Below the pieces are notes generated by a model that was given only the letters and a program-made list of their open reading frames with translations, searched no databases and was not told the DNA's origin. Position numbers and translations under genes: made by a program. Source: an uncultured virus (IMG/VR IMGVR_UViG_3300029914_000006) (Duplodnaviria; Heunggongvirae; Uroviricota; Caudoviricetes). Taken from it: a stretch of DNA of 63,718 nt. Positions 3,401 to 63,718 of the stretch are shown in pieces (the stretch's first letter is position 1; the number at the start of each line of letters is the position of its first letter). Location of the stretch: IMG/VR virus record IMGVR_UViG_3300029914_000006; one strand, 5' to 3'.

Positions 3401-4471
3401 GCGGTGTCCTACCGCTCGACTGACGGATGGCGCGAGTTCACTGGAGCCGATGGCGTTTACAAGACCTTGATGGTCGAGTGGGTATTCCAGAATAATCCGC
3501 TCTGCATCGTTCCGCAGGCCGACATCTCCCAGGCTTCGCAGGACGTGATGTGCTACTACAACAACCAGATCATTGACTCGTACATCTCCCTCAGCGGCCA
3601 GCGTTACCGCATGGTCTGGGATTCTCGGTACGGTAGGTTCCGGTACGATGATGTGCCGGCCACCGCGATGCTCTGGGAGAAGGACATCAACACCCTCCTC
3701 GTTGGCAAGCAGATGGGCGTCGGTCAGTACGCTATCGTGCAGGACCAAGTGGGAGACTACGACGATGGTGGATGGGTATCCGGCGCGCTCGTGCAGACGC
3801 CGATCACCGTGACCATCCAGACGCCGTATCACGACCTCGGCAAACCGCACCTCCCAAAGCAGTGGAATGAGTTCGAGGTTGATGTGAATACGAAGGGACA
3901 GAATATGTCCTCGACCCTGTTATTTGAGGACGGAACAATATCCCTGCCGCTGAGTGTGGTCAACAACACGACACGCCAGAAGGTTGAACTGTTCGTCAAT
4001 AACGGCATGGGAGAACAGGCGTATCGCGCGTCCATTCAGCACTCCATATCCGTCACGACCGCCCCGATCTTATATCAGGACGACATCTACGCTGCACTCC
4101 TTGCGGAGTATAGCGCGAGTATCGATTCGTATTTTATTAAATTTGGTACGGATACTGACAAGTTCGTCAAGCAGGGGTGGTTCGATTACACATCAACCTA
4201 CCCAATAACGGGCAGTCTGTACGCAGACAATAGTCCTATTCCGTACTTCACGTTCGCTCTTCCTGCGCAGACACAGAGATACGTGATGCGCGTAAGGTTT
4301 GGAAACGTGAATAATGGGACCACCGCGTTTACTTGCAGAACGTGGAGGATCATCCTGAACACCTTGAATGATTCCGATGGCACTCAGTTTCAGATGTGGG
4401 AGAAGCCGCGTATCGAATGGAAGACGATAAACGCCGGCGACTCATACAAGATCAAAGAGTTGGAGGTTTGA
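407..4471 (+). CDS. Tail tube/nozzle-like (tubular protein B / stabilization-type) structural protein, 1354 aa
   Basis: Long ORF; C-terminal half has beta-propeller-like motifs (WLAGDKNNPHYLYFSKKGQPESF, VHGIIAQGGW) typical of podovirus tail nozzle proteins; lies before GNAT and ejection genes. Confidence 0.65.
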   Translation: MSQDTDYKPVSLVYKSRGLVARNVYDQCPEYTYIDYLNVYEREENSTSSRYGTQVVNRDAIGVGTSNHYFSSPVTSLSRMNYQSNAWRYAGLGDGSLWRRAGNAQGAYTELTLPNTWYGTPVTLSGQPFGSLVNSCFETSQPFLFMYDQNASIKDQGTGSPQLTGIDPSPYTLNVTPYAPLLIMIDSFASSNTYTTANVTGWAWSSYETLTVVAGNMVTDFSQFYPSAASGSTYNPSTTTNTATSSQGVKGTKVVTSPANSGFPSIVPPPGDVVTLNVAINGSISITGGSANGEIDFQYSIDSGVTWNYLYEFDSYSSAVIPPQNAFVVVSVANINTIQTRIVCTSYVVSSGSSSTTTGNITNIFLTVAPPFFSAVQNGMIAILNSNTSISIPIVSSVSSSLSGGRYTQLLVTTQSAHGLSSGSMISIYSSSNDLIDGFYAVIATPTSTTFTVAFLSVDQIGATGGFVYGGAAAPSACVLSDQYNLPYPQQVSAYGFYQYVPPTTTSLPVSYRGGTVAASTTGTVSKTVSMDLNQSNQVTDADLIVITLLVSTPANISQIELQFFVGSGTNNYYQAPISPAYYQGAVSGNVSAYQATENQILADTLGLITGQPPGTTSAQLQPTVLSTGSGSWRSCYIPRGNFLPVGQAGEPGLDWSNVTGWQLAVTTNSLGTVTFQVNGLYLQWGYGPSSFAGVGYDYRQTYYNANTGTESNPTSIQAFNEDYGYLSSTKAPIYLRQAAQIVGQYSNDPQVTHLRIYRRGGILSSNWVQVIQSPNLTGGGQFILKDVIADSYVEQAQPLILDNDPPVTSSLVNPIQTALLAGTTAVGLNSIYSTFYPQTVTVVQASAVFVPNQVVIVGNASNLEEIYVVTGGVGTFTAILRLQHNQGEPVNVYAVPRQACNLCALAYNQTWLAGDKNNPHYLYFSKKGQPESFGPQNYIPVSTPDDPINAVINWRGTLIVGTLKSWFIIVGGAQPYAQPTGSVHGIIAQGGWCVVEGAVSYRSTDGWREFTGADGVYKTLMVEWVFQNNPLCIVPQADISQASQDVMCYYNNQIIDSYISLSGQRYRMVWDSRYGRFRYDDVPATAMLWEKDINTLLVGKQMGVGQYAIVQDQVGDYDDGGWVSGALVQTPITVTIQTPYHDLGKPHLPKQWNEFEVDVNTKGQNMSSTLLFEDGTISLPLSVVNNTTRQKVELFVNNGMGEQAYRASIQHSISVTTAPILYQDDIYAALLAEYSASIDSYFIKFGTDTDKFVKQGWFDYTSTYPITGSLYADNSPIPYFTFALPAQTQRYVMRVRFGNVNNGTTAFTCRTWRIILNTLNDSDGTQFQMWEKPRIEWKTINAGDSYKIKELEV

Positions 4472-21302: not shown

Positions 21303-22259
21303 ATGGCAACAGCACTCCAGGTAGCACCGGCACGGCACGCGCTGATGACTCGATTTGCGGATAAGTTCGAGATCGACGCGGCCAATGTGATGTCCATCGT
21401 GGCATCGACCATCTTCAAGCAGGGAAAAGACGAGGCCCCGCTCACCGCAGACGAAGTTCACGCAGCAATCTTGGTTTGCAACCAGTACGATCTAAACCCT
21501 TTTCTCAAAGAGATTTACGCTTTCCGATCCAAGGGGAAGTTGCTGATCTATGTTTCCGTGGACGGATGGTGCAAGGTCATCAATCGGCAGGAAACGCTCG
21601 ACGGCATCGAGTTCGAGGAGCACTTCGACGACAAGGGAAAGATTTCGGGAGTGACCTGCAAGATCCACCGCAAGGACCGTCGCCTCCCCATCGTCGTCAC
21701 CGAGTATTGGTCGGAGTGCTCGCGTAACACAGACCCTTGGCAGAAGTCGCCGATCCGCATGACCCGGCACCGCGCTCTCGTTCAGTGTGCTCGCGTTGCG
21801 TTTTCGATTTCCGGCATCATGGACGAGGAAGAGGCGGAAAGCATCAAGGGCGGCACCGTGATGGCTGGTACGCCAAACGGCGCGCTGATCGAAGGCAACA
21901 CTCAGCAGGCACTCCCCGATCCAGAGCCTACCATCGGCAAGGAGAAGGCGACCGCCTGGTACAAAACGTACCGCTCGTCGGGCCACACCCCGGACGACTC
22001 GAAAGCCTACCTCAAGGCCGAGTTCGGAATCGAGGCGCCGCGCAATTCCGCAGACATTCCCGTCTCTGGCGAAGCCAAAGCCTTTGAGTGGGCCAACACG
22101 AAGGCTCCGGTCCGGCTGAAGGTGGACGAACTGTTCGAGTACCTTGGCTGGACGCATGAAGAGTGTGTTGCATTCGTGAACGAACACAAGGCGGATTGGG
22201 TGAAGATCGCGGAACTGGCGGGCGCGGAGTTGGACAAGCGCAATGCCGAAGAGAAATAA
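21303..22259 (+). CDS. bet: RecT/Bet-family single-strand annealing recombinase
   Basis: CNQYDLNPFLKEIYAF, VSVDGW, PWQKSPIRMTRHRALVQCARVAF are lambda Bet signature motifs. Confidence 0.88.
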   Translation: MATALQVAPARHALMTRFADKFEIDAANVMSIVASTIFKQGKDEAPLTADEVHAAILVCNQYDLNPFLKEIYAFRSKGKLLIYVSVDGWCKVINRQETLDGIEFEEHFDDKGKISGVTCKIHRKDRRLPIVVTEYWSECSRNTDPWQKSPIRMTRHRALVQCARVAFSISGIMDEEEAESIKGGTVMAGTPNGALIEGNTQQALPDPEPTIGKEKATAWYKTYRSSGHTPDDSKAYLKAEFGIEAPRNSADIPVSGEAKAFEWANTKAPVRLKVDELFEYLGWTHEECVAFVNEHKADWVKIAELAGAELDKRNAEEK

Positions 22260-23642: not shown

Positions 23643-23933
23643 ATGAAGATCATCGGCAAAACAGCAAACGGCTATATCTTAGATGCGGACGGCAACGAAG
23701 TAGCCAACCTCTTGGGGTTCTACTCGAAGTACAACATGGACGACGCCCTGCGAATTGGAGACCGGATCAACGTCCATTCGATGTACGAGAGCCTGACGGC
23801 GATCGCCTCCAAAGAGAAGGAAATGGCAGAGGCGCGCAAGATCCTTCGTACTGTCGCCGACGCCCTCCAGTTGGTTGATCCTGTAATCCGCGAAGTGAGC
23901 GCGGCGGCTAGCGGAAAGGCGGTGGCGGAATGA
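23643..23933 (+). CDS. Hypothetical protein
   Basis: GAGGA RBS; coupled to next gene. Confidence 0.65.
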   Translation: MKIIGKTANGYILDADGNEVANLLGFYSKYNMDDALRIGDRINVHSMYESLTAIASKEKEMAEARKILRTVADALQLVDPVIREVSAAASGKAVAE

Positions 23934-24247
23934 GCGAAGCGAAACTGAAGCCCTGCCCGTTCTGCGGTCATGCAGCAAAGCATGACCTCTCTGATTTCGG
24001 GTCCGCGATGATCTACTGTGGCACACAGGACAGCGGAGAAGAGTGCCCAATTAACCCTGAGAGCGGATTCCATGACAGTATGGATACGGCGGCGTCCGCA
24101 TGGAATGCGCGCCCGGTCGAGGAAGCTCTGCTGGCCGCACTGAAGGCATGGAAAGAATACGAGTCAAGCATCGCGCCGTCTATGTCCTGGAATGAACTTG
24201 AGGCGCAGGTGGACGCGGCTATCGCCAAGGCGGAGGGCGACCAATGA
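23930..24247 (+). CDS. Lar-like restriction alleviation zinc-ribbon protein
   Basis: LKPCPFCG...C...CP...AASAWNAR Lar family pattern. Confidence 0.7.
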   Translation: MSEAKLKPCPFCGHAAKHDLSDFGSAMIYCGTQDSGEECPINPESGFHDSMDTAASAWNARPVEEALLAALKAWKEYESSIAPSMSWNELEAQVDAAIAKAEGDQ

Positions 24248-28589: not shown

Positions 28590-31226
28590 TTGTCTGACAT
28601 CTCCGAATACCGCATCCCCGACCAGGCACCGGAGTACCCGGAAGAGAAGGAGCGTCCACGGCCCCAAACGGTGGAAGCAGTGGCTCCGTGCTCGATCGAT
28701 GGAGAACGAGTCCTACTCGGGGCTGTGCTCCTAGACCCGGCCTGCTTCAACGAGATTGCCGAGGCGCTGACGCCGGAGGACTTCTTCCTCGACAGCCATC
28801 GGCGCATCTTTCAGCGCATGGCCGACCTGATCGACGCGCAGCAAGCCGTAGACCTTGTGACCCTATGCGCGGAACTCGACCGCCACAAGGAGCGCGAGTC
28901 AGTCGGTGGCGCGGCGTTCATTTCCGGCCTTACGGATGGACTACCGCGGCGGCCCCAGATTGCCGACTACATTCGCATCGTCAAGGAGAAGTCCCAACTC
29001 CGCCGGCTGATGGCAATCTGCTCCTCTGTGCTGTCGCGCGCGGCCGACCAGAGCGAGACGGCGATGGCGGTTCTGGAAGACGCGGAATCGCAGTTGCTGG
29101 AGGTGGCCCAGGAGTCGAATACCAGCAAGTTGCGAGACTTCGGATCTTCTGTAACTCAAGCGGGAGGGCCAGATCAATATATTCGCCAGTACACCGAACC
29201 GAACCTCAAGGTGGGACTTCCGACGGGTTTTATTGATTACGATCGGCTTACTGGAGGTCTTCAGAAGGGAGAGTTGACGATCATTGCAGCCAGGCCAGCG
29301 CAAGGAAAAACTAGCATTTCAATGAATATTCTCGAAAACGTATGCTGCGGAACAGATATGGTAGCAGCGTTCTTTTCTTTGGAGATGTCGAGGCCCTCGG
29401 TGGAGCGTCGGTTCATGGCATCTAGGGCTCGCGTGGACATCAAGAGGGCCATGGAGGGAGAATTCCTTAGCTCGGAGGAAAAAAGAAAGCTACAGAAGGC
29501 ACTAAATGACTTGGTGGAGTCTCGCATATTTATCGACGACTGCTCCAATATGACCCCGATTCAGATGAGAGCAAAGGGTCGCCGGCTAAAGCAGCGCGAG
29601 GGGCGCCTTGATCTTGTGGTGATCGATTACATCAGTCTCGTATCGGGAGACAAAAAAACCCAAAACAGGGAACAAGAAGTGGCGCTTGTGTCTCGATCCC
29701 TGAAGGCAATGTCAAAAGAACTCGATTGCCCCGTGATCGCTCTTGCCCAACTCAATAGGAATAACGAACAGCGCCAAGATAAGCGTCCCGTATTGTCAGA
29801 TCTGCGGGAATGCTTGTCAGAAAAAGACACTTTTCTGTTTACTTCTGGTGGTGTTCAATCTAATATGGAATCTCCTATGAACACGTATAGTTTAAGCAAT
29901 GAAAAAATCAAACCTGTCCCTTCCTTCAACGTTCCGAAGGGGGTATCGCAAGCGATTAGAGTCAGGACGAGATCGGGGCGCGAAATTGTATGCACTCCAA
30001 ATCACTCCATACTCACGGATGTTGGCTGGGTCAAGGCCAAAGACCTAACTCCAGATCACGCTATTGCTGCGGCGAGAAAGATCGACAGCCTGCCTGGGCG
30101 TATTTCTATACCGGAATCTCGGTGGATTGGGAGAATGCTCGGAAATGGATCAATGCTAGGGTATTCATCCCCATCCTTCATTTGTTCTTGCGCGGATGTT
30201 GCCAAGGATTTCTGTGAGGACACTGAAAGGCTATTCGGTCTTATCCCTAGATATCACAAGCACTCAAGCGATAAGGTTTTCCAGTACGACATAACAACGC
30301 GATCGAAGAGGACAAGGGAAGGAAACCCCGTAAAAAATTGGCTAATGTGCCACGACTTGTGGGGTAAAAAAGCCCACGAGAAAAGCATCCCGGAGTGGTT
30401 TATGGAGCAGGCCGATGACGAGTCTATCGCCAACATGATAGCTGGCCTAGTAGAGACAGATGGATCGGTATTTACCACCTCTGTTCCGATGGTAAAGTAC
30501 AGCACCACAAGCAAAAAAATGGCATGGCAATTTATGTGGTGCTTGAGCCGCCTTGGAGTATTTGCAAAGATTGATGAGGGGGATCTTAGTCCCAAGGCTA
30601 ATTTTGTTTGCTATAGTGTATTGATCCAAGAGGGGAAAGAGGTAGATTTATTTCGGTCAAAGATTAATTTGGTAGGGAGAAAAGGAAGAACTCTTCTTGG
30701 CTTGAACCCTAGTTTGCACGGCAGCAATCATGGAGACCGTTTGGGAGTGTGGGTAAGTTCAAAGCTGAGGGAAATTTCTCTTGCGAATGGGATGTCATAT
30801 GGCGACTTGGGATACAGGAGCCAGGGAAAGCGCATAAGCCAAGTAGATTTGTCCAAGGCCCTCTCTGTATTCTCTAGGCGTGGCATCAAGGTCCCAGAGT
30901 TGTCTGTCCTAATTAACTCGTACATTTTTTGGGATCGGCTCAAGAGGATAGACGCGGCAGGAGACGTTAAGGTATTTGATCGTATCGTGCCAGGTCCTAA
31001 TAATTTCATAGCGAACGGCATAGTGGTTCACAACAGCGGGCAAATTGAACAAGACGCAGATGTTCTCAACTTTGTCCATAGGCCAGAATACTATGACCGA
31101 GATAATGACGAGTTGAAGGGGATTGCAGAGCTTATTTGCGCGAAGCACCGTAATGGTGCTACTCGCACCATTCACCTTGCATTTGAAGGTTCCCTCACTC
31201 GTTTCGACAATATCGCAAGGAGATAG
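28590..31226 (+). CDS. dnaB: Replicative DNA helicase DnaB containing an intein
   Basis: ERVLLGAVLL N-domain, IIAARPAQGKT, FFSLEM, VVIDYISL, LAQLNR, RPVLSDLRE|intein|SGQIEQDAD, AKHRNG. Confidence 0.95.
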   Translation: MSDISEYRIPDQAPEYPEEKERPRPQTVEAVAPCSIDGERVLLGAVLLDPACFNEIAEALTPEDFFLDSHRRIFQRMADLIDAQQAVDLVTLCAELDRHKERESVGGAAFISGLTDGLPRRPQIADYIRIVKEKSQLRRLMAICSSVLSRAADQSETAMAVLEDAESQLLEVAQESNTSKLRDFGSSVTQAGGPDQYIRQYTEPNLKVGLPTGFIDYDRLTGGLQKGELTIIAARPAQGKTSISMNILENVCCGTDMVAAFFSLEMSRPSVERRFMASRARVDIKRAMEGEFLSSEEKRKLQKALNDLVESRIFIDDCSNMTPIQMRAKGRRLKQREGRLDLVVIDYISLVSGDKKTQNREQEVALVSRSLKAMSKELDCPVIALAQLNRNNEQRQDKRPVLSDLRECLSEKDTFLFTSGGVQSNMESPMNTYSLSNEKIKPVPSFNVPKGVSQAIRVRTRSGREIVCTPNHSILTDVGWVKAKDLTPDHAIAAARKIDSLPGRISIPESRWIGRMLGNGSMLGYSSPSFICSCADVAKDFCEDTERLFGLIPRYHKHSSDKVFQYDITTRSKRTREGNPVKNWLMCHDLWGKKAHEKSIPEWFMEQADDESIANMIAGLVETDGSVFTTSVPMVKYSTTSKKMAWQFMWCLSRLGVFAKIDEGDLSPKANFVCYSVLIQEGKEVDLFRSKINLVGRKGRTLLGLNPSLHGSNHGDRLGVWVSSKLREISLANGMSYGDLGYRSQGKRISQVDLSKALSVFSRRGIKVPELSVLINSYIFWDRLKRIDAAGDVKVFDRIVPGPNNFIANGIVVHNSGQIEQDADVLNFVHRPEYYDRDNDELKGIAELICAKHRNGATRTIHLAFEGSLTRFDNIARR
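29811..31034 (+). mobile_element. Intein with LAGLIDADG homing endonuclease (408 aa)
   Basis: Starts Cys (CLSEK), block B CTPNHSILT, WIGRMLGNGS and MIAGLVETDGS motifs, ends NFIANGIVVHN followed by Ser; lower GC than exteins. Confidence 0.92.
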
Positions 31227-32829: not shown

Positions 32830-33984
32830 ATGCCCAAAAACAGCTATCAGCACGGCTCAGTAACCCTCATATCCCTCAAGTCGGGTCCGGTATGGAGGTT
32901 GCGCTACCGGCGCGACGGGAAGCAGTTCTCCGACTTCATCGGGACGCAGCGCCAGTACCCCGACAAAGCCGACGCGATACGGGCCGCCGAGCGCATGATG
33001 TCGATCATCAACGGGCCGACCTCCGAGTGCGTGACGATGGCCGACCTGGTGGACCGCTTCCTGCGCGAAGCGATGCCTGATCGGAAGTCCACCGCCAACT
33101 CCTACAAGTCCATCCTGTCGCGCATCCGAGAAGCCTGGGGTAGTACGCGCATCGACAAGTTCACGCTGGATATGGTTCAGGTCCAGAACTGGCTGGAGGG
33201 CCTGACCACGGTCAGACAGCGCCCGAAGCGTGCGCCCGCGAAGCCTCTGTCTGGACTCTACAAGGCCCAGGTGAAGGCCCTGCTCCACCTCCTGATAGAG
33301 AAGGCAATGCTCTGGAAGGTGATCCAGATGCAGCGCAACCCGGTGGAGGTGGTGAAGCTCAAGGGATCGAGCGCACGCGCCAAGGAGATTGTCATCCTGA
33401 CCATCCCGCGGTACCAAGCATTGCTCGACGATCCAGAACTTCCGGAACTGGTCAAGGTCATCATTCAGGTGACCGCTGCGCTCGGACTGCGCATCTCGGA
33501 GACGCTGGGGCTCCAGTGGAAGGATCTCGACTTCGAGGCCAACACTATCTCCATCGAGCGCGGCGTGATCGGCGGGGAGACAAACAACGTGAAGACGGAG
33601 GGCTCCCGGCAGGTGTTACCTCTGCATCAGAATCTGGTGGACCTCCTGCGCGAGTGGCGCGCTTACCGGCCGGTTATCGGCGACTGGATCTTCGGCTCGG
33701 AGCGGACGGGGAGGCCCTACGACAGAGATCCGTTGAGGGAAGAGTACCTGAAGCCAGCCGGGGCGAGGATTGGCGCTTCGGGGCTTGGATGGCATTCCTT
33801 GAGGCATCTGAACCGCGCTATTCAGAAGCAAATAGGCCTACCGATGGAGACTCAGCGCAATTTAATGCGCCACTCCCGCATCGCGACGACCATCGACACT
33901 TACGGCGGCAACGACAACCTGGAACAGACGAGGCCCGCAAACGAGCAGATCGTGCGCGTGCTTCCGTGGAGAAAGGTATCTTGA
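32830..33984 (+). CDS. int: Tyrosine recombinase / phage integrase
   Basis: N-terminal arm-binding-like WRLRYR; catalytic LGLRISE (R), VKTEGS (K), HSLRH, MRHS, DTYG (Y). Confidence 0.92.
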   Translation: MPKNSYQHGSVTLISLKSGPVWRLRYRRDGKQFSDFIGTQRQYPDKADAIRAAERMMSIINGPTSECVTMADLVDRFLREAMPDRKSTANSYKSILSRIREAWGSTRIDKFTLDMVQVQNWLEGLTTVRQRPKRAPAKPLSGLYKAQVKALLHLLIEKAMLWKVIQMQRNPVEVVKLKGSSARAKEIVILTIPRYQALLDDPELPELVKVIIQVTAALGLRISETLGLQWKDLDFEANTISIERGVIGGETNNVKTEGSRQVLPLHQNLVDLLREWRAYRPVIGDWIFGSERTGRPYDRDPLREEYLKPAGARIGASGLGWHSLRHLNRAIQKQIGLPMETQRNLMRHSRIATTIDTYGGNDNLEQTRPANEQIVRVLPWRKVS

Positions 33985-37296: not shown

Positions 37297-37834
37297 GCGA
37301 ACGGCGGCAGTCGGCATGGTCATGGTGAAAGAGATGTTTCCGGTCAACCAGCAGGAGTCCGATGCCGCGGCGAAGTTGCGAGTCGAGTTGCTAGCCGAGG
37401 TCGTGGATGCTGTCGGCCCGGAAGCCTTCTTGGCGGCAGTGAAGAAGGCAATCAGTATCAGCAAGGGACGTTACGATTGTACCGTCAGCAGGATCAGAGA
37501 TTGCGCCGGCCTTCAGCACGTCCCTGATCCGTCTCCGGCGATGAAGGCGTGGGCAACCGTGACCGAGATCGTCCAGCGGCACGTCAGGGAAGCGCCAGAG
37601 GGCGGCATTCGGCTTGAGCCCTATGTGTACCGGCGCGGAGATGAAGTGCTAGAGGTGCCTGTCCCGGCCATTCCTGAGCCTATGGCGCGCGCGTTGCGCA
37701 GCCTGGGAGGGTGGAAGGCCCTGATGGATACTGAACCGGCCTACTGGAGCCAGCGGATGCGGGACTTCTGCGGGGCGTATCAGGAAGAATCCAGTCTCAA
37801 ACGAGACTGCGACGAGAGGAGATTGACGGCATGA
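37199..37834 (+). CDS. Putative helicase loader-like protein (start uncertain)
   Basis: AMKAWATV..ARALRSLGGWKAL..RDFCGAY pattern typical of genes following phage initiators. Confidence 0.5.
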   Translation: MSTGLSKTPQSGGANSSTDMTKSAPRPSDSSNKRTAAVGMVMVKEMFPVNQQESDAAAKLRVELLAEVVDAVGPEAFLAAVKKAISISKGRYDCTVSRIRDCAGLQHVPDPSPAMKAWATVTEIVQRHVREAPEGGIRLEPYVYRRGDEVLEVPVPAIPEPMARALRSLGGWKALMDTEPAYWSQRMRDFCGAYQEESSLKRDCDERRLTA

Positions 37835-38799
37835 ACACAGTGGTAAGGATTGAATTTGGCTCACATTTGTACGGGACCAACACAGAAACCAGCGATCACG
37901 ATTACAAATCGGTGTACATACCATGCGGTTCTGACATCCTTCTTCAGAGGGTAAAGGGATCTACTGGCCACGAAGTCAAGCGGTACGAGGGAATGAAGAA
38001 CTCGCCTCAAGATACAGACGATGAGGCGTATTCCCTTCAGAGATATTTGGGACTTCTAGCCGAGGGGCAGACTGTCAGCATTGACATGCTGTTCGCTCCC
38101 AGTCCTCTAATCTCCACGCCGCTATGGGAAGAGATTCGCGCCAACAAGGACCGTCTACTCACAAAGAAATCTGCGGCGTTCGTTGGATATTGCCGGACCC
38201 AGGCGAACAAGTACGGCATCAAGGGGAGCCGGGTGGCGGCGGCGAAGCGGGCCGCTGAGTTCTTTTTAGATCATCATCGGTCAAGCGGAGCAACCGCCAA
38301 GGTAGGAGAACTTGAGCCTCTTCTGTCGGGACTGTTCGATGAGCATACGCGAGTCATCACAAAGGAGACAGCGCCTGGAAAGTTTGAAACCTACTTCGAG
38401 TGCTGTAACCGAATGGTAGGTTTCAAGAACACGCTCAAAGAGGCTGCGTCGATCTATACTCGCATCTACGACGAGTACGGCCACCGGGCGCGGCTTGCAC
38501 AGACCAATGAAGGAATCGACTGGAAGGCCCTTTCGCACGCTGTCCGAGTAGCGAATGAGGCTATGGAGCTTCTGATGACCGCGAACGTCACCTTTCCGCT
38601 TCCGAACAGGGATCATATTCTCGCAATCAAGAAAGGGCTTCTTCCTTACGGTAAGGTCGCCGAGGAAATCGAGGGGCTTCTTTTGGATGTCGAACGAGCT
38701 TCGGAAGTTTCCACGCTACGCAATGATCCTGACACGAAATTCATCGATGCTCTAGTGAAGAAGGTATACCGGGAATCTGTATTGATGGAGGCGTCATGA
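37831..38799 (+). CDS. DNA polymerase beta-superfamily nucleotidyltransferase (RlaP/YcgL-like)
   Basis: FGSHLYGTNTETSDHDYK, GYCRTQANKYGIKG, DWKALSHAVR, ILAIKKG. Confidence 0.85.
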   Translation: MNTVVRIEFGSHLYGTNTETSDHDYKSVYIPCGSDILLQRVKGSTGHEVKRYEGMKNSPQDTDDEAYSLQRYLGLLAEGQTVSIDMLFAPSPLISTPLWEEIRANKDRLLTKKSAAFVGYCRTQANKYGIKGSRVAAAKRAAEFFLDHHRSSGATAKVGELEPLLSGLFDEHTRVITKETAPGKFETYFECCNRMVGFKNTLKEAASIYTRIYDEYGHRARLAQTNEGIDWKALSHAVRVANEAMELLMTANVTFPLPNRDHILAIKKGLLPYGKVAEEIEGLLLDVERASEVSTLRNDPDTKFIDALVKKVYRESVLMEAS

Positions 38800-39817: not shown

Positions 39818-40093
39818 ATGGACCAGTGGAAGCCCAAGAAGCAGTTCGCCCCGGAGGAGGTCGAAGCGGCGATGGCTCGAAAGGGAGGATTCTCCCGCGA
39901 ATCGCTGGCGAAGTTGGGCGTTCCATGGCCACCTCCGAGCGGTTGGCGCCGGGCCATCACGAAGAGACCAGAAATCCCATCCGCCATAATGGATGACGCG
40001 CGCACTCGAACTCCTGAAGAGTGGTATGCGCTGATTCCAAAGTTAGCTCATTGGGCCTTCAAGGGGAGAACCATTTGCCCCGAAGCAGAATGA
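39818..40093 (+). CDS. Hypothetical protein
   Basis: GAGG RBS; KGGFSRESLAKLGVPWPPPSGW family motif. Confidence 0.6.
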   Translation: MDQWKPKKQFAPEEVEAAMARKGGFSRESLAKLGVPWPPPSGWRRAITKRPEIPSAIMDDARTRTPEEWYALIPKLAHWAFKGRTICPEAE

Positions 40094-40768
40094 AGTTGGC
40101 GGAATTACCACTATTTTGTCGGGTGAAAGATATTTATGCTTGCGCGGAATCTTTATCTTCTTTGCGGCTTCCCGTATATCCCAAACTACTCGACCAAGGT
40201 TCTTTTTCACATCTTGGTTTGTGAATCGAATAACGGTCCACCCCAACTTCCTGATGGATTCAGTACGAATCGCGTCAAGGGTCTGCTGCTCAGGAGTGAA
40301 ATGGTATCCACCATCGACTTCGACCGCCAACTTCCCAGGAAGTATCTGGAAGTCTACAAAATAGGACCCCACCGACACTTGCGCATCGAAGGATATAGCC
40401 TGCTTCAGAAGCTCTCCCGCAAGCAGCATTTCAGATGGAGTTTGACGATTAATAAGGTCTTCGCGCTTTTCTTTGAGAGACAAGCTTTTCCAGTAGGACT
40501 CTTGGGTGCTTGATGCAGGTATTACGCTGACAACCTTGCCTTTCTTTATCTTTTTAGGATTGGCAGAATGAGCTTTCGCGATCTTCATTCGTTTCGTGAC
40601 GGCCCCTAGTCTCTCAAGGGCTGCTTCTCTGGTGTTAGTCCTTTCCGCCTGATCCATTTTTCCGCAGAGTAAACACCTTACGAAGTGGCAGTGGATGCGG
40701 GCGTGGAGGTAATCTTCAGGCTTGAAGCATGGCTCTGGTAAATCTTCACGGCAAACAGAGCAGAGCAT
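40043..40768 (-). CDS. DUF559 / very-short-patch-repair-like endonuclease
   Basis: TPSEMLL, YFVDF, LAVEVDGGYH, DAIRTESIRKLGWTVIRFTN; lower GC, antisense to neighbours. Confidence 0.85.
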   Translation of the reverse strand: MLCSVCREDLPEPCFKPEDYLHARIHCHFVRCLLCGKMDQAERTNTREAALERLGAVTKRMKIAKAHSANPKKIKKGKVVSVIPASSTQESYWKSLSLKEKREDLINRQTPSEMLLAGELLKQAISFDAQVSVGSYFVDFQILPGKLAVEVDGGYHFTPEQQTLDAIRTESIRKLGWTVIRFTNQDVKKNLGRVVWDIREAAKKIKIPRKHKYLSPDKIVVIPPTSFCFGANGSPLEGPMS

Positions 40769-40947: not shown

Positions 40948-41757
40948 ATGGGCACCCAAATTGTTGTCGCAAATCCGTCGCATATCCCGCAGCCCGAGTA
41001 CCTTGCGCCCCAAGAAATTGACGTTGAGGAGTACAACTGCGAGATCCACGCAGCCGCCAAGTCGCTGCGCGTCAGTTCCATGCGGATAGCCTTTTACGGC
41101 TTCAGGATGAAGATGGCGGATGGATGGACAGCTTGGGGGTTCGAGTCAGGCCCCCGAGGCGAAGAGGCGTACATCGAGTCCGTGGGCATCCCGCGCTCGA
41201 CCTGGTTCCGGCTGGTGCGCGTCGGCCAGGCTATGCACCAACTCCCTTTGGCGGAGCTCGAAAAGATCAGCGTCACGAACGCCGAGATCCTGCTGTCGGT
41301 AAGCCCGACCATCCTCTACGACCACAACTGGGTATTCGAGGCCAAGACCCTTCCCTCTACCAAGCTGGCCGCACTCGTGGCGGAACGCAACAAGGTGGCC
41401 GGCGACGACCGCGAGCCTCTTACGATCCTGCATTTCAAGGTCCCGGTACTGGCCAAGCAATCCATCGACGAGATGCTGGACGTATTTAAAGACAAGAACA
41501 TGCTGTCCAGCCGGGGGCAGGCTATCGAGTTTATGGTGGCCGACCTGCACGACCGGACGAACCTACTGGCATCGGTAGACAAGGCGCTCAAACTGATCAA
41601 GGGGGCCTACGTCGGGTTGTCGTCCAAAAAGATATCGGCACCGGACGAGATGTACTGGATTGAACTGGCGATGGAGGCACTCAGTGAGGCTCGTGAGAAA
41701 GCGGTTCAAGCCGCCCGATCGAAACCCGACCGCGGTAAAGAAGGTAGGGGGGCGTGA
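40948..41757 (+). CDS. Hypothetical protein (possibly leaderless)
   Basis: 269-aa ORF; TACAAT 7 nt before ATG; TGCAACCGTT box at 40909-40918. Confidence 0.7.
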   Translation: MGTQIVVANPSHIPQPEYLAPQEIDVEEYNCEIHAAAKSLRVSSMRIAFYGFRMKMADGWTAWGFESGPRGEEAYIESVGIPRSTWFRLVRVGQAMHQLPLAELEKISVTNAEILLSVSPTILYDHNWVFEAKTLPSTKLAALVAERNKVAGDDREPLTILHFKVPVLAKQSIDEMLDVFKDKNMLSSRGQAIEFMVADLHDRTNLLASVDKALKLIKGAYVGLSSKKISAPDEMYWIELAMEALSEAREKAVQAARSKPDRGKEGRGA

Positions 41758-42052
41758 AATCTGCCTCAACAACGACGCAGGGCGAGCCGCTTATAAGCAG
41801 CGGAAAATGCTCATGTGGCAACGTCAGTCAGGTTTTTGTAGCCTCTGCGGAAAACCAGTATCGCTTAGTGAATGCACCTTTGAGCACGCTCAAGGTCGGA
41901 CTTCAGGGAGAAGAGATGATCGCGTTATCGACGAGAACGGACAGCCAATCAACTCAATATGCCACCCTCGGTGCAACCAGGACAAAGGGTCTCGGCATTT
42001 TCAACCGGATATTCCTCGCGGCTTCGATCCTGATCCTAGCTTCGGCGAGTAG
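41684..42052 (+). CDS. HNH endonuclease
   Basis: RQSGFCSLCG..TFEH..NSICHPRCNQDKG; GGAGG RBS before GTG. Confidence 0.75.
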   Translation: MRLVRKRFKPPDRNPTAVKKVGGREICLNNDAGRAAYKQRKMLMWQRQSGFCSLCGKPVSLSECTFEHAQGRTSGRRDDRVIDENGQPINSICHPRCNQDKGSRHFQPDIPRGFDPDPSFGE

Positions 42053-44507
42053 CGCCTTCGCGCAAGTCGGCGCGGCCATCAGCGGCCAGTGGGTGACGAC
42101 CAGCGGAACTCCAGCGGCCAACGCGCGCCTCACGGTCTGCCCGTACACTGCCAGCGGCATCCCCTGCTATCCGCAGGCGACCATCTACGCCGATCCTGGG
42201 CTTACTGTACCACTATCGCAGCCCTACGCGACAAACAGTTACGGGAACGCCACGGTCTACGTCGCGACGGGAGCATACATAGTCCAAGTCGCCATCAACG
42301 GAACAATCACATACTCATATGGATGGACAGCATCCACGGGTTCTGGAAGCATATCGGGAACAGGTGCGCCTACAGGCTTAACCTGCAATGCGAACAACGC
42401 AGGACAGATTTACGTCAACAAAGTGACAGGCGAGATTTACACATGCAACGGCGCAGCGTGGACATTGCCGCCAGCAGCCGGAGGGCCGTACTTGCCGTTG
42501 GCGGGTGGCACACTCGCAGGCCCCCTCAACGGCACGAGTGCTACTTTCTCAGGCACCGTCGTGGCTCCCACGACAAATGGTATCCACTATTCAGGAGAGT
42601 ATGCGGGAAACGATTGGGTTTCAAAATTGCAAGCTTGTTTACTTTCGAACACAACAGGAACTTGCACGGTGGACGGTTCTAATGGTTTCAGTCAAACTGG
42701 AACTACCGTTCTAACTACATCAGGATTAGGACAATCAATTCAGTTTATTCAGTCAGGAATATACACTGTCTTAAAAGGTATTATTTTAACTGGAGGCGAT
42801 ACAGTTATAGGAATGTCGCCTAGTTACGGTCATAATCCTGTAAGTATAGAGGCTGCAAATAATGCTGCAATAAATACGCCGCTTATAACGGTTGGGAGCG
42901 GTGTAGTAATTGCTTGGATAGATATCGATGGAAATACATGCGGTGTTGGTTGGGGACTTTGCCATACAAATAACGGCATGAGTGGAGCAAATCCTGTTGT
43001 TTCTATTTCTGGGGGAGGTAACCAAAGGCTAACGAGTATAGGCATATGGAATGGAACGGACGCAGGAATTATTAGCACTGGCGTCAATAATTTGTATTTA
43101 GAAAATGTTCTTGTAGCTGGTAACTCTAAGCAAGGATATCTATGTTCTGGTAGCGGCGATATATGGATTCAAGGTGGTTCGCAATTTGAAGCCAATGGCT
43201 ACTCGGGAATAGAATTAGCGGGTTGCGGTTCTGTTAGGATGACAGGCGGCGATATCTCTGTAACAGGTTCTCTCGGTGCTGGTGCGACCAGCACTAAATG
43301 TAGTCTCTATGTGCACGGTTTGAGTGGAAGTCAATTAGCTACAACTAATATTTTCGACTCGGTGCAATTTGGTTCGGCGGGTAGTTCTGCTATATGTGAT
43401 GTAAATAATAGTACTAATCCGTCTATCCCATTTAATTTACAAAATATATATCAAGGTATTCAGTCTATTTCGCCTAGTTCTTCTTATCCTAATATCTATG
43501 TTTATAACGGACAAAATGATTTTTTCTCTGGGACAGTATATTCTTATGGTTCGCAATATGGAATACAATTTTCTGAGTCAGGCTCAGGGTTCGCATTACC
43601 TTCTTCTGTTAGATTAGTTTTTGCGAACGGTACAACGCTTTCAAACGCATGGAATGACACAACTGTTTACAAAAATGATTTTTCTGGTTCTATAGTTGGC
43701 AATACACAGACTTATTTTAGCGAAGGACCATTTGAACAATGTACAAAGACTTCAAATGGATTAGATTCTTGTACCGAAACATTCAATGAGGCATTTAGTA
43801 ATTCGAATCCAGTAAAAAGCATTTATATGCCCAATCTGAATGGTGGTGGGTATCAAAACTATGAATCTATCGGTGTAAATTCAGCGCCTTATAATTCGAC
43901 AGCACTAGGATTCACTTATAGCAGTTCCGGTTCTACATCTAATAAAGCATTTTGGGGAGTAGCTGGAGGTGTCAATGCGGCGTTTATTGACGGATTAGGA
44001 AATGTGACAAATCTTAATTCAGTAACTTCCGGTCATGTTACTATCGGCACTGGATCATCGTTGAATATATACTCTGGGAATTATGCCTCCGGATCTCAAT
44101 TTGGACCGACTATAAGATCATCAGCCGGAAATAATCTGATTCTTAATTCTTATGGTGGAACGTCATCTGTTTTTCTCAACAACGATAATGGTAGCGGAAC
44201 CGGAGGAACTAATTTCGGAAATGGCGCTGGAACAATTGTTGCTGTTATTGATGGTTCTGGGAATATATCCGGAAATACAGCTACAGTGTCCTCAGCCCGT
44301 CGCGGAACGTTCACCTGCACTGCTGGTGGAAATATTCTTATTTCAAACACTAACTTTATCACTGGATCAGATGTTTTAGTCACAATGGAAACAAGCGGAG
44401 GAACACCTGCGCAACCATATATGAATACACCATCAAGCGGTGCAAGTTTCAAAGAACAATGCGGTGCCTCCGACACGAGCGTGTATCGATATACGATCTG
44501 GAACTGA
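41916..44507 (+). CDS. Tailspike/receptor-binding-like protein with beta-helix region
   Basis: ATIYADPGLTVPLSQPYATNSYGNATVYVATGAY head-binding-like N-domain; Gly/Asn/Ser-rich beta-helix-like repeats; AT-rich from about 42590; start uncertain (frame open from 41754). Confidence 0.7.
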   Translation: MIALSTRTDSQSTQYATLGATRTKGLGIFNRIFLAASILILASASSAFAQVGAAISGQWVTTSGTPAANARLTVCPYTASGIPCYPQATIYADPGLTVPLSQPYATNSYGNATVYVATGAYIVQVAINGTITYSYGWTASTGSGSISGTGAPTGLTCNANNAGQIYVNKVTGEIYTCNGAAWTLPPAAGGPYLPLAGGTLAGPLNGTSATFSGTVVAPTTNGIHYSGEYAGNDWVSKLQACLLSNTTGTCTVDGSNGFSQTGTTVLTTSGLGQSIQFIQSGIYTVLKGIILTGGDTVIGMSPSYGHNPVSIEAANNAAINTPLITVGSGVVIAWIDIDGNTCGVGWGLCHTNNGMSGANPVVSISGGGNQRLTSIGIWNGTDAGIISTGVNNLYLENVLVAGNSKQGYLCSGSGDIWIQGGSQFEANGYSGIELAGCGSVRMTGGDISVTGSLGAGATSTKCSLYVHGLSGSQLATTNIFDSVQFGSAGSSAICDVNNSTNPSIPFNLQNIYQGIQSISPSSSYPNIYVYNGQNDFFSGTVYSYGSQYGIQFSESGSGFALPSSVRLVFANGTTLSNAWNDTTVYKNDFSGSIVGNTQTYFSEGPFEQCTKTSNGLDSCTETFNEAFSNSNPVKSIYMPNLNGGGYQNYESIGVNSAPYNSTALGFTYSSSGSTSNKAFWGVAGGVNAAFIDGLGNVTNLNSVTSGHVTIGTGSSLNIYSGNYASGSQFGPTIRSSAGNNLILNSYGGTSSVFLNNDNGSGTGGTNFGNGAGTIVAVIDGSGNISGNTATVSSARRGTFTCTAGGNILISNTNFITGSDVLVTMETSGGTPAQPYMNTPSSGASFKEQCGASDTSVYRYTIWN

Positions 44508-57573: not shown

Positions 57574-58050
57574 TTATTCCTCTCCAGGGACATTGCCCGT
57601 GTCTGGGTCGCGCAGCATCATCCGCTCACGATGCCAAGCCGGGCAGCAATCACACGGCCCAGGATTCTCCCGGATGTATGCCTGAACCCGCTCGATGCAC
57701 GCCTTGCATGTGCAGATAGCAGGCTCCAGCACAAGGTTTCCTACCTGCATGATGATCGGGCCAACATGGAAAGCCTTGTGAATCTCCTCCAGGGTCAGGT
57801 CAAACCACTCTCCATGAACGCGCCGAGACTTGAATAATTCATGCAGCCGCTCTTCAAAGAACCATCCAAGCCCCCGCTTACACATCATAAGCGCAATAAA
57901 ATCTAGCGGGTAAGGGCTTTGTCTTGCCAGCGTACTGACTCTCGCGCTAGGGTTATCAGTTGTGCCGATCTTGGCGCGGCCGCACTCGGACCATATGACA
58001 TAGACATAGCTGCGGTTACGCGCGTGGAAGTCAGTCGTTAAACGGCTCAT
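57574..58050 (-). CDS. GIY-YIG nuclease (T5orf172/MUG113-like)
   Basis: YVYVI..AKIGTTDNPSARV..EERLHELF..RVHGEWF. Confidence 0.85.
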   Translation of the reverse strand: MSRLTTDFHARNRSYVYVIWSECGRAKIGTTDNPSARVSTLARQSPYPLDFIALMMCKRGLGWFFEERLHELFKSRRVHGEWFDLTLEEIHKAFHVGPIIMQVGNLVLEPAICTCKACIERVQAYIRENPGPCDCCPAWHRERMMLRDPDTGNVPGEE

Positions 58051-59951: not shown

Positions 59952-60505
59952 CCGACTTCGCCTCGATGATCAGCGGTATGGACGCGGAAGCCCGTCAGGA
60001 GATGATCGATTCCGCTCAGAAGTTTATGGAACACCGCGGGGATTATGAGACGTGCTTGTTCTGCGGGAAGAACCTGACGGATTTGGTTTGCGATGCGCCG
60101 ATTGGTTTTGAGATGGCGGGGTACAAGGATCCGGTACTGAAGACCCCGTTCACGAAGGCGGTTGATGGCTATCGATACCTGGATAGCAAGTCGGAGATGT
60201 TCACTTGCGATTTGCCGGTGTGCTTGAGTTGCAGGACAACTGGTGAGCCTATTTTCTTTTGCGGAGGCACTGAGGAACGATGGTTCCGTGAGTCTTTAGG
60301 CGAGGGCTCCCATTTTGATCCATCGGGCGTGTTTGTTCCAGACCTGTGCCCGCTGCATAGAAAGTCATCTAGCCTCGGACCTACTCAACAACGGAACAGA
60401 GTCATAACGCGGGACGAGGCAGAAGCATGGAGGAGGCAGGCGCGCATGATGATTGAGGGTGGAAAGATGGAGAAGGTATTGCCGTACCCGCAGGTGGCCG
60501 AATGA
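59948..60505 (+). CDS. Cys-rich hypothetical protein
   Basis: AAGGAG RBS, GTG start; CLFCG, LVCD, TCDLPVCLSC, DLCPLH. Confidence 0.6.
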   Translation: MTDFASMISGMDAEARQEMIDSAQKFMEHRGDYETCLFCGKNLTDLVCDAPIGFEMAGYKDPVLKTPFTKAVDGYRYLDSKSEMFTCDLPVCLSCRTTGEPIFFCGGTEERWFRESLGEGSHFDPSGVFVPDLCPLHRKSSSLGPTQQRNRVITRDEAEAWRRQARMMIEGGKMEKVLPYPQVAE

Positions 60506-60945
60506 CGGTGCAAGAGGAGATCGACGACTTGCTGAAGGCGCACGGGGCGGTTCTGGACCGAACGAAGAAGCACCACGTTTGGAAGTTCCCTGACGGGCGG
60601 ACGTTTGTGGCGGCGAGCTCGGCGTCTGATGTGCGGGCGGAGCGGAACCAGTTGGCGACGTTGCGGCAGATGCTCGGGGTGAAGCGGGTGGTGCGGAAGA
60701 ATCCTGGGCGGTTGGAGAAGAAGGGCGTTGGGCACGCGGCGTATGCGGGGGCTATCCCGGTTCGGCCGGACTGGAAGCAGGTTCTGATGGCGGCGATTGG
60801 GCTGGCGGAGCCGGTGGTGGAGAAGTTTGTGCCGGCGCGGTGTTGCTGCGCGGTGGATGTGCGGGTTGTGCCGATGACGCCGGTGTGGTGCATACTGCGG
60901 AATTTGGTTGGGTATGGAGGAGACATTCCGCACGACCGCAGATAA
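60502..60945 (+). CDS. Protein with HicA-like N-terminal domain
   Basis: LLKAHGAVLDRTKKHHVWKFPDGRTFVAASSASDVRAERN. Confidence 0.55.
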   Translation: MTVQEEIDDLLKAHGAVLDRTKKHHVWKFPDGRTFVAASSASDVRAERNQLATLRQMLGVKRVVRKNPGRLEKKGVGHAAYAGAIPVRPDWKQVLMAAIGLAEPVVEKFVPARCCCAVDVRVVPMTPVWCILRNLVGYGGDIPHDRR

Positions 60946-60997
60946 TTCTCTCGACATTTCAACGGAATCGTGGAACTATATGGGAAGGAGGTACCTG

Positions 60998-61186
60998 ATG
61001 AAGACGATAGTGTTCTATGAAGTCCCGAAGTTTCCCGAGTTGAAGTTCTCTGGATGGCGCACGCTTGACGCGCAGGTGCCTCCGGAGCAGGTGCATCGTT
61101 TCGTGGATATCCGTCGTGCGTGCCATGTTGGTTGTGGGCAGTGCGGGTTCACGGAGGACTATCCAGTGCATGAGAAGGTGGCATGA
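60998..61186 (+). CDS. Hypothetical protein
   Basis: AAGGAGG RBS. Confidence 0.5.
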   Translation: MKTIVFYEVPKFPELKFSGWRTLDAQVPPEQVHRFVDIRRACHVGCGQCGFTEDYPVHEKVA

Positions 61187-61293
61187 TGAAGGATCTCAAG
61201 TGGTACCGCACACTGGAATCTGTCTGTTTAGCTATTCTGATGGCACTCGGTCTCGTCTGTGTTTTTGGCGGAATACTGGGTCACTCGAAGTAG
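61183..61293 (+). CDS. Small single-TM peptide (36 aa)
   Basis: MMKDLKWYRTLESVCLAILMALGLVCVFGGILGHSK; coupled ATGA. Confidence 0.45.
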   Translation: MMKDLKWYRTLESVCLAILMALGLVCVFGGILGHSK

Positions 61294-61297
61294 AGTT

Positions 61298-61563
61298 TGA
61301 GTTCCCCGCAAGGGGAAATACGCAGTGAGCCCTTCGAGGCTAAATCGTTCATCTCTGAGTCCAAAGGATCGTGGCACGGCCGATCACGGAGATGAGGGAC
61401 GGGTACCAGTCCTAGATTCCGGTGAGACTCCGGCACTGCGTAGATGAGTTCCCTACGGGGAAGATGCGCGGCGTAGCGATACGTCATGTAGACATAGCCG
61501 GGGTGGAGTCAGATAGGGTCTACACGTGAGACTCTGGACGGAATCGAGACCGGACCGCGCATC
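61298..61563 (+). ncRNA. Candidate tandem two-unit structured RNA
   Basis: Two units, each TGAGTTCCC..GGGGAA hairpin + 9-bp closing stem + multibranch interior + shared GTGAGACTCYGG. Confidence 0.55.
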
Positions 61564-61583
61564 AGCAACACCAAGGAGTTCTA

Positions 61584-61811
61584 GTGAGCAAGTTTACAGA
61601 AGGCAAGCAGCCATGCAGCGACTTCAAACCGCAACGAGACGGCAACGGATATGCGACTTGGGATAACGTGCATGAGTGCTTCGGCCCCTTCGATGATTCA
61701 GGACGGCATCGCTGCGGAGGAACCGTTTCGTTCTGTGAGAACTGCTACTTGGACCATCATTCAAATGGGTGGGGTAGATGCCCCGAACCGCTTCAGAAAG
61801 ATATCGAATGA
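61584..61811 (+). CDS. Cys/His-rich hypothetical protein
   Basis: AAGGAG RBS; FCENCYLDHH. Confidence 0.6.
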   Translation: MSKFTEGKQPCSDFKPQRDGNGYATWDNVHECFGPFDDSGRHRCGGTVSFCENCYLDHHSNGWGRCPEPLQKDIE

Positions 61812-62092
61812 CACTTCTCTACCAAAAGTCGATCGCAGACATCGCGGCCCAGCCGTTGACGCGGGACCAGGAGATGTACGAGCCTACCGAGAGCGAGCGC
61901 GAACAGGGCATGTGGGCGGTCGTGGCGGACAAGGTAGACGAGGATGGCGATCCTGAGCCTGGCACGCGGTATCACATCATCCCGACGCATGGGGTCAGCC
62001 ACCAGATATCGGAGATGTGCTGGTGCGAACCGACACGTCACGAGCACAGCAACGGGCAGCCGTATTCGGTGGTCCATTCAATTTCGCAGTAG
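61808..62092 (+). CDS. Hypothetical protein
   Basis: Coupled; HIIP..H..CWCEP..VVH. Confidence 0.6.
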   Translation: MTLLYQKSIADIAAQPLTRDQEMYEPTESEREQGMWAVVADKVDEDGDPEPGTRYHIIPTHGVSHQISEMCWCEPTRHEHSNGQPYSVVHSISQ

Positions 62093-62108
62093 ACAAGAGG
62101 AGAAGTAA

Positions 62109-62306
62109 ATGGCGATTATCGTAAGGCCGTCCGCAAGTCCGACATGCAGTACTTGTGGGTATAAATTATGGACGGAAGTAAAGATGGGGAAAGAAGTAGC
62201 AACCCACCCTTTCAGTCCATCATGTCCTGATAGCCACAAGGCGTTTGAAATACCATCCTTCGAGTGCAAGCCTCTCGACGATATTTACGCAAGCGACCAA
62301 GTGTAG
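62109..62306 (+). CDS. Small zinc-binding protein
   Basis: GAGGAG RBS; CSTC..H..C. Confidence 0.55.
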   Translation: MAIIVRPSASPTCSTCGYKLWTEVKMGKEVATHPFSPSCPDSHKAFEIPSFECKPLDDIYASDQV

Positions 62307-63087: not shown

Positions 63088-63561
63088 ATGAAAGTTGTCT
63101 TTCTTGATTTCGATGGCCCGATTATCCCGATGGCCTCGCACCAACCGCCTTACAGGATTCCGGGTAGCGGAGCACAGGCGTTGCCTTGTTGTGTGGACCA
63201 ACTCAACAAGATCACAGACGCAACGGGAGCCGTCATAGTCGTGAGCAGCACATGGCGTGCAGATGGCCTGATGAAGACCCGAGAACGCTTGCATAAATGG
63301 GGAATAAAGGCCGATTGCATAGCGATTACTCCACATATGGACGAGCGCGACCCAAAGAGCGGCCTATGGATTTCGCACCCTCGTGGGCAGGAAATCCAGA
63401 AATGGCTCGATGAATACGACCGCGAGGAAGTTGAGGCATTCGTGATTCTCGATGACGATTCAGACATGGAGCATCTGATGCCATATCTCGTGCAGACTCC
63501 GTTTGAAACGGGGATTACCGAGGACCACACTGCTCAGGCGGTTGCACTTCTGAACAGGTAA
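63088..63561 (+). CDS. HAD-superfamily protein (Swiss Army knife RNA-repair-like HAD domain; cassette D cargo)
   Basis: VVFLDFDGPI, IVVSSTWR, RGQEIQKWL, FVILDDDSDM, GIT. Confidence 0.85.
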   Translation: MKVVFLDFDGPIIPMASHQPPYRIPGSGAQALPCCVDQLNKITDATGAVIVVSSTWRADGLMKTRERLHKWGIKADCIAITPHMDERDPKSGLWISHPRGQEIQKWLDEYDREEVEAFVILDDDSDMEHLMPYLVQTPFETGITEDHTAQAVALLNR

Positions 63562-63615: not shown

Positions 63616-63718
63616 ATGATCCAAATCAAGAAGAGTCCCACGGCTGATACACGCACCTGCGACTTTGCAAACACAAGCAAAGACACTTTGCTATCCAGTA
63701 GTTTCCAGCACATTGAGG
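63616..63718 (+). CDS. Hypothetical protein, truncated by the window end
   Basis: AGGAG RBS; MIQIKKSPTADTRTCDF open to the end. Confidence 0.55.
   Translation, partial: MIQIKKSPTADTRTCDFANTSKDTLLSSSFQHIE

Follow-up and report, generated by a model that had tools for sequence, protein, structure and literature searches.

Two stem-clamped, RNA-like units in an intergenic gap of an uncultured phage: a possible orphan RNA family

What is contained in the 290-bp gap (61294-61583) between two co-oriented small genes of the uncultured virus IMG/VR IMGVR_UViG_3300029914_000006? The record comprises 63,718 nucleotides, which were analysed as a whole and are referred to here as the window; it represents a phage-like peat contig of the Caudoviricetes, and the gap is situated within a block of small genes on the + strand (58.6-63.7 kb). 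A preliminary description of this locus, made from the letters alone, had seen a tandem pair of structurally similar, sequence-diverged RNA units in the gap and considered a novel non-coding RNA or a ribozyme. Our analysis supports part of this description, namely a tandem pair of related, RNA-like structured units on the + strand. The explanation that we tentatively favour, with a probability of roughly 0.4, is that the gap carries two small structured RNAs, or processing modules on an operon transcript, which would belong to a new orphan family.

Both units are built on a common outer frame. Each of them opens with a box, i.e. a TGAG flank and a hairpin (pattern TGAGTTCCC..GGGGAA), which is followed 0-1 nt later by a perfect 9-bp closing helix, called clamp in the following, and a small hairpin directly abuts the 5' strand of this clamp. 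All stems and motifs listed in the preliminary description were found at their positions, including the two perfect closing stems, and the gap between co-oriented genes was likewise confirmed, extending from the stop of a 36-aa open reading frame (ORF) to the GTG codon of the next gene. In unit 1 the clamp encloses four arms (61328-41, 61349-95, 61397-412 and 61419-33); in unit 2 it encloses a hairpin with a GCGA loop (61472-83) and, in the favoured inner fold, a long arm that includes the hairpin 61514-21/61529-36. Apart from the frame, the units have in common the box, a 12-mer and a GAGTC motif that follows the box after 58-60 nt (all coordinates are collected in Table 1). The boxes agree in their flank and at the base of their stems, and they differ in their loops. 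GAGTC can form 5 bp with the GACTC of the 12-mer in each unit, i.e. the pseudoknot considered earlier is possible, but this pairing gives no covariation, because its letters are the same in both units. The situation is different for the clamps, in which the aligned sequences show two compensatory A-U/G-C double exchanges, whereas in the structure-based alignment five of the nine pairs differ and none is broken. These exchanges speak for the earlier statement that pairing was retained despite different stem sequences; it must be mentioned that only two paralogues are compared and that each structure was read from its own sequence.

The layout of the gap is clearly non-random. The 12-mer (GTGAGACTCYGG) is present in exactly two copies in the window (61422 and 61526), and with one mismatch allowed four matches were obtained, compared to 0.56 expected. 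The box pattern GAGTTCCCN{3,6}GGGAA was found twice in the window, where 0.02 occurrences are expected. We also scanned both strands of the window for the architecture itself, defined as a tetraloop hairpin after which, within 0-3 nt, a perfect stem with no fewer than 8 bp begins and spans 80-160 nt, and matches were found solely at the two adjacent units. As background, an anchored 9-bp stem follows after 122 of 127,096 positions, corresponding to approximately 1e-3 per anchor; hence, two homologous boxes that are each accompanied by a 9-bp clamp are far beyond chance. Furthermore, the three 4-nt loops of the units (GCAA, UACG and GCGA) all belong to the RNA-stabilising GNRA or UNCG classes on the + strand and none of them does so on the - strand. 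The window contains 144 tetraloop hairpins with a perfect stem of 5 bp or more, and 13 of them, both boxes included, carry such loops. In addition, GAGTY is present five times on the + strand of the 290-nt gap against about 0.6 expected (Poisson 4e-4), an excess that was spotted post hoc.

Folding energies were compared with those of dinucleotide shuffles. On the + strand, z-scores of -2.56 (unit 1), -3.13 (unit 2) and -2.46 (whole gap) were obtained, compared to -1.76, -2.42 and -2.16 on the - strand. The shuffled-control test proposed in the preliminary description was passed with these values, although only moderately. The tetraloop classes on the + strand together with the better + strand z-scores favour an RNA that is read in the direction of the genes. 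The fold initially drawn for unit 1 corresponds to its minimum-free-energy (MFE) structure (-58.1 kcal/mol), whereas the one drawn for unit 2 (-42.8 kcal/mol) is less stable than the MFE structure (-48.5 kcal/mol). In the context of the gap, the clamps form with pair probabilities of 0.97-0.99 and the core helices of unit 1 with 0.94-0.99. Each box hairpin reaches only 0.22 in the gap alone, because the boxes 61302-61317 and 61449-61462 can swap strands owing to the shared letters of their stems; the resulting long-range box helix around unit 1 is the MFE solution of the whole gap (-108.8 kcal/mol). In a context of 550 nt, the box hairpin of unit 1 shows a pair probability of 0.71.

Table 1. 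Positions of the two units, their motifs and the bordering genes, followed by other assigned genes of the window
Feature	Position	Strand	Remarks
Unit 1 box hairpin	61298..61317	+	TGAG flank; 6-bp stem TTCCCC/GGGGAA at 61302-61317; GCAA (GNRA) loop
Unit 1 core, 124 nt	61319..61442	+	Perfect 9-bp clamp TACGCAGTG/CACTGCGTA, 61319-27/61434-42
Unit 2 box hairpin	61445..61462	+	TGAG flank; 5-bp stem TTCCC/GGGAA at 61449-61462; TACG (UNCG) loop
Unit 2 core, 101 nt	61463..61563	+	Perfect 9-bp clamp GATGCGCGG/CCGCGCATC, 61463-71/61555-63; no spacer after the box
12-mer GTGAGACTCCGG, copy 1	61422..61433	+	Loop and 3' strand of the last unit 1 arm
12-mer GTGAGACTCTGG, copy 2	61526..61537	+	In unit 2
GAGTC, unit 1 middle arm	61357..61361	+	Complementary to GACTC of the 12-mer; 58 nt after GAGTT of the box
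GAGTC, unit 2	61506..61510	+	Complementary to GACTC of the 12-mer; 60 nt after GAGTT of the box
Upstream 36-aa ORF, hydrophobic	61183..61293	+	Stop 61291-93, 8 nt 5' of the unit 1 hairpin; left gap border
75-aa Cys-rich gene with its ribosome-binding site	61573..61811	+	AAGGAG 61573-78, GTG 61584; right gap border
RecT	21303-22259		
Lar restriction-alleviation protein	23930-24247		
DnaB helicase split by an intein with LAGLIDADG homing-endonuclease domain	28590-31226		Pfam scan
Integrase	32830-33984		
RlaP-type nucleotidyltransferase	37831-38799		phrog_388, E 1.6e-76
DUF559/MTES_1575 endonuclease-like protein	40043-40768	-	
Tailspike-like protein	41754-44507		
T5orf172/GIY-YIG-like protein	57574-58050	-	
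HAD_SAK_2 phosphatase-like protein	63088-63561		

Does the element belong to a described RNA family? Rfam 15 gave no match at the gathering threshold in the whole window, in agreement with the novel RNA that the preliminary description had considered possible. Even at E values up to 10, the units produced only partial sub-threshold matches of 9-18 bits, compared to gathering thresholds of 33-50; the names obtained were CRISPR-DR57/18/36, sR44, whalefall-1 and msiK, with none of them in unit 2. The literature search did not retrieve a description of this element. The coding reading of the gap was rejected as well: its four ORFs (68, 49, 46 and 40 aa) match neither Pfam nor PHROG at E values up to 1, and a comparison of the 68-aa ORF with 5.8 billion proteins yielded no homologue. 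Sigma-70-like promoters and terminator-like hairpins are missing in and beside the gap, and within 60500-62300 the only such site is located at 62090. Hence, the gap, if transcribed, would be part of an operon message.

How could such modules work? We infer transcription, processing, stability and any activity of the modules from the features above, and the following scenario is conditional on them. The two modules may have arisen by duplication and subsequent divergence and would be read on the + strand within a polycistronic message of the 58.6-63.7 kb block, a co-transcription that fits the site content of the region 60500-62300. Each module would be ordered in the same manner: the box (UGAGUUCCC, a stable tetraloop, GGGGAA) precedes a multi-branched core of approximately 100-125 nt, the ends of which would be held together by the 9-bp helix. 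The box hairpin would stack on the clamp and mark the module. RNases of the host or the phage could then cut out the cores, which would persist as small stable RNAs, or could employ the modules to define the ends of the flanking messages and to protect them. The activity might depend on a contact, tertiary or between molecules, in which the conserved GUGAGACUC and its GAGUC partner take part.

Comparable arrangements are known from well-studied phages. Phage T4 produces the species 1 and 2 RNAs and phage T5 the so-called stable RNAs beside its tRNA genes, all of them small stable RNAs of obscure function. The present units would resemble them as adjacent genes for structured RNAs of about 100-150 nt with clamped ends among small phage genes; in contrast, ARAGORN found no tRNA gene in our window, and neither a sequence relation nor a relation via Rfam is apparent. 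Phage T7 has RNase III processing hairpins in the gaps that separate its early genes, and rRNA operons contain processing stems. With these, the gap shares structured elements between co-oriented genes and a helix formed from the module ends, but the clamps comprise only 9 bp and the cores are multi-branched instead of a single irregular hairpin. A site of the T7 early type offers about two turns of double helix to RNase III; in our case, a helix of approximately 14-20 bp would only result if the clamp stacks coaxially on the box hairpin (5-6 bp) and an inner arm (4-5 bp). We use the term stem-clamped structured RNA modules of phage gene blocks for this descriptive kind, which is not a curated family. 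The gene-free location between co-oriented genes and a predicted self-contained fold with paired ends are both found here. With some reservation, we therefore regard the element as a possible new orphan of this kind; no sequence relation to any other element was found. If the modules are real RNAs, they would add an unnamed family to the clamped structured RNAs between small early or accessory phage genes, whose roles as processing signals, stable RNAs or decoys are largely obscure, and the placement of one box before two different cores would provide a handle on the factor that recognises it. For now, an orphan from a single lineage carries only modest weight.

Several observations weigh against the favoured explanation. 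The z-scores are moderate, and in the 550-nt context the pair probabilities of the clamps fall to 0.32 (unit 1) and 0.62 (unit 2), with 0.31-0.84 for the core helices of unit 1. Moreover, a covariance model, RNAalifold and the pair probabilities all show that the units differ in their inner folds. A covariance model of unit 2, which was built on the drawn structure and applied with filters off, detected unit 1 with just 2.7 bits, from the 5' box hairpin alone, and RNAalifold on the sequence alignment returned a common long-range structure that consists of the box hairpin and three clamp pairs only. The arms TGTAGAC/GTCTACA and TCTGG/CCGGA drawn for unit 2 have pair probabilities of 0.00, whereas its alternative hairpin 61514-21/61529-36 reaches 0.88-0.98. 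In the best folds, unit 1 places the 12-mer in a hairpin loop of 7 nt, unit 2 in a stem strand. Of the initially proposed structural similarity, the outer frame of box hairpin, 9-bp clamp and abutting hairpin therefore stands, and the inner arms, which are unfavoured in unit 2, do not. With regard to processing, the 9-bp clamps are short for RNase III, and an RNA-binding or RNA-processing protein was not recognised beside the gap. The public sequencing runs that contain the stretch are peat and soil metagenomes, with no RNA run among those listed.

The search for further copies also has to be counted on this side. Phage and plasmid records contained no blastn match to queries of 701 and 286 bases. 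Three motif patterns applied to IMG/VR found only IMGVR_UViG_3300030011_000011, which is identical over 421 aligned bases, and one pattern applied to JGI metagenomes found only Ga0302283_1000023, identical as well; in GTDB genomes one pattern gave two matches, both of them without clamps and read as chance. Relatives of the 62-, 75- and 161-aa proteins in IMG/VR led to the same identical contig and five remote loci, those of the HAD protein to 16 loci, and neither route contributed a further copy of the element. A search with the unit 2 covariance model over 216,053 bases (the window and 20 loci) detected only unit 2 itself. The architecture matches examined in other loci (three) all fall within long ORFs, and their folding energies are no better than those of shuffled sequences (z -0.58 to -1.48). 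An unrelated gap (z -0.61) precedes the best relative of the HAD protein. Since only identical copies were found, independent covariation is lacking. On the supporting side, a soil relative with approximately 4% divergence, which covers 61477-61836, differs in the 87 nt of unit 2 at a single base (61549 A>C) that is unpaired in both fold models. A further change is placed 3 nt past the clamp, and 10 listed changes fall into 253 nt of the next gene. The direction of this lower rate in unit 2 fits constraint, but the difference to the next gene is not significant (Fisher p 0.30).

Among the alternatives, the one that survives best treats the gap as functionless in itself. In a rapidly changing accessory block, a stretch of some 130-150 bp, e.g. 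the start region of a gene, would have been duplicated locally and left the gap as a remnant, and the stems would be fortuitous, tolerated or repeats that bind proteins at the DNA level. We consider this explanation rather unlikely, yet it accounts for the orphan status with only identical copies in IMG/VR, JGI metagenomes and GTDB genomes, for the different inner folds and for the non-significant conservation in the soil relative. Moreover, the boxes open with TTG/ATG AGT TCC, as copied gene starts would do, the ribosome-binding site (RBS) of the true gene repeats GAGTT, and the spacings of the repeats (147 and 104 bp) are near whole helical turns. A cluster of six GANTC sites in 270 bp (61357-61545) is also in line with it, as at least six sites are present in only 0.36% of such windows. 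Nevertheless, the window as a whole shows no depletion of GANTC (275 found versus 241 expected) and another place holds seven sites, for which reason a cluster of methylation sites as DNA signal was rejected. The short ORFs of 33 and 10 codons are without an RBS. The remnant or DNA-repeat explanation is hard to square with two perfect 9-bp clamps that are anchored at homologous hairpins, each at a chance of about 1e-3 per anchor, and still pair perfectly after their letters diverged, and with three RNA-stabilising tetraloops on one strand, which neither a DNA site nor a decaying ORF predicts.

Alternatively, the units could act in cis as the leader of the 75-aa gene, with a tandem sensor or protein-binding domain in which the GACUC of the 12-mer has two alternative pairing partners, the internal GAGUC and the GGAGUU of the RBS, and in this way sets translation. 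The position is suitable, because the end of the unit 2 clamp is located 9 nt 5' of AAGGAG. In addition, GGAGTT (61575-80) in the downstream RBS echoes the GAGTT of both boxes, GACUC(Y) and GGAGUU can form six pairs including wobble, and the post hoc excess of GAGTY points in the same direction. The arrangement also resembles tandem riboswitch aptamers, i.e. two structured domains directly upstream of an RBS. However, neither the MFE nor the centroid structure of 61443-61615 pairs the RBS with the core, and a terminator-like or other expression platform is absent. Unlike tandem aptamers, the units are not two copies of one fold, and no known riboswitch class was matched at E values up to 10. 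A leader function is hence clearly unlikely.

Further explanations start from the resemblance of the box hairpins to CRISPR repeats. The boxes could mimic type I-E repeats, as an RNA anti-CRISPR or a decoy that resembles CRISPR RNA: a host nuclease of the Cas6 type would attach to them or cleave there, and the cores would block normal effector assembly. Viral repeat units of this kind were defined in PMC10651486 by a CRISPR repeat match over at least 90% of the length and a bit score of at least 41.1; they are solitary, often placed right behind their own promoter, and occur with hosts of the matching CRISPR-Cas subtype. Like these, our boxes are intergenic phage hairpins, and the unit 1 box opens with 12 letters (TGAGTTCCCCGC) that are identical to the start of two I-E solitary repeat units (rows 1743 and 1853 of supplementary file 1 of PMC10651486). 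Other I-E entries there carry TTCCCCGC, with 23 occurrences. Furthermore, the only Rfam matches to the boxes belong to CRISPR-DR families, the box flank and stem base are kept as the loops differ, and the phage encodes other genes of anti-restriction type, namely Lar and a giant ParB/helicase protein. On the other hand, the CRISPR-DR matches to the unit 1 hairpin cover only 13-15 of 36-37 model positions with 10.9-18.2 bits, compared to gathering thresholds of 38-50. In relation to the I-E entries of PMC10651486 that were compared, the stem is shorter and the 3' part remains unmatched, and our contig has no occurrence among the IMG/VR entries of supplementary file 1. CCCCGCAAGGGG represents a generic stable hairpin, since it is also present in I-C and III-A repeats of this file (13 occurrences). 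Moreover, the boxes differ from the solitary units described there by occurring twice at a distance of 147 nt, which is not array-like, by the lack of a promoter-like site before them and by the core of 100-125 nt that accompanies each box. Taken together, we judge repeat mimicry to be improbable.

The same holds for a variant that combines this resemblance with the clamped cores. Here, a host nuclease of RNA processing or defence, e.g. of the Cas6e type, would recognise the box hairpins, and the phage would use them to deliver two different clamped RNA cargo domains, so that a repeat-like tag is coupled to a structured decoy and GUGAGACUC pairs with GAGUC within or between molecules. This delivery function is a long shot; if true, it would represent a new class of phage counter-defence RNA.

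Finally, a catalytic or tRNA-like RNA, i.e. a pair of new self-cleaving ribozymes or tRNA mimics for phage enzymes of the RNA-repair type (RlaP, HAD_SAK_2), is very improbable: the multi-branched clamped fold, the hairpin that abuts each clamp end without a spacer in both units as tRNA arms do, the 7-nt loop of the last unit 1 arm and the presence of both enzymes in the phage are suggestive, but ribozyme, Y-RNA or tRNA-like families were not matched inside the units at E values up to 10, RlaP is encoded 22 kb away, Ro/Rsr, RtcB and reverse transcriptase are missing among the 79 ORFs scanned against Pfam (26 + 53), and positive support was thus obtained neither for ribozymes nor for tRNA mimics. 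The earlier assessment that the element is not a canonical tRNA was correct, as ARAGORN reported no gene in the window with default settings or at 80% thresholds, and calls appear only with thresholds lowered to 60-80% and introns of 86-167 nt. In contrast, the comparison of the last unit 1 arm with a T-loop gained no support; its loop TGAGACT has 7 nt without the usual T-loop letters, and in unit 2, whose fold lacks a 7-nt loop, the same letters lie outside such a loop.

Some other candidates were rejected or set aside. A retron msr/msd is not compatible with the absence of a reverse transcriptase domain among the 79 ORFs, in which a Cas6-like protein was not found either, and with neighbours that are small proteins without families. 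A miniature inverted-repeat transposable element (MITE) would have alike clamp ends and different flanks, and the reverse is the case here. Type III antitoxin repeats, integron attC sites, the phi29 pRNA and the HK022 put RNA were considered and set aside, as neither a toxin gene nor an Rfam match was found.

The upstream 36-aa ORF has no PHROG family and the 75-aa Cys-rich protein neither a Pfam nor a PHROG family. The latter has six relatives with 59-82% identity on short contigs of 754-1633 bp, whose alignment contains 28 invariant columns, eight of them Cys/His. Small Cys-rich, zinc-ribbon-like proteins are found on both sides of the gap, with 62 aa (60998-61186) and 75 aa (61584-61811), respectively. 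Inside the 75-aa gene, a hammerhead type I match was noticed on the - strand (61696-61766; 19.4 bits compared to a gathering threshold of 34, E 0.084), which is probably due to chance because its core letters are imperfect.

With regard to the remaining contig, the nearest isolated phages, as judged from RecT alone (39-51% identity), infect Proteobacteria. One ORF of 3239 aa (9264-18983) combines a ddrB-like ParB domain with an AAA_34 helicase-type domain, and two further large ORFs nearby, of 1354 aa (407-4471) and 794 aa (6880-9264), have no family match. The RlaP nucleotidyltransferase and HAD_SAK_2 place two RNA-repair-associated families in one phage, with no recognised ligase or kinase partner. 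The window, with its end at 63718, and two independent assemblies stop within approximately 370 bp of each other, about 2.1-2.5 kb downstream of the element; this common end may correspond to a genome terminus or a repeat boundary.

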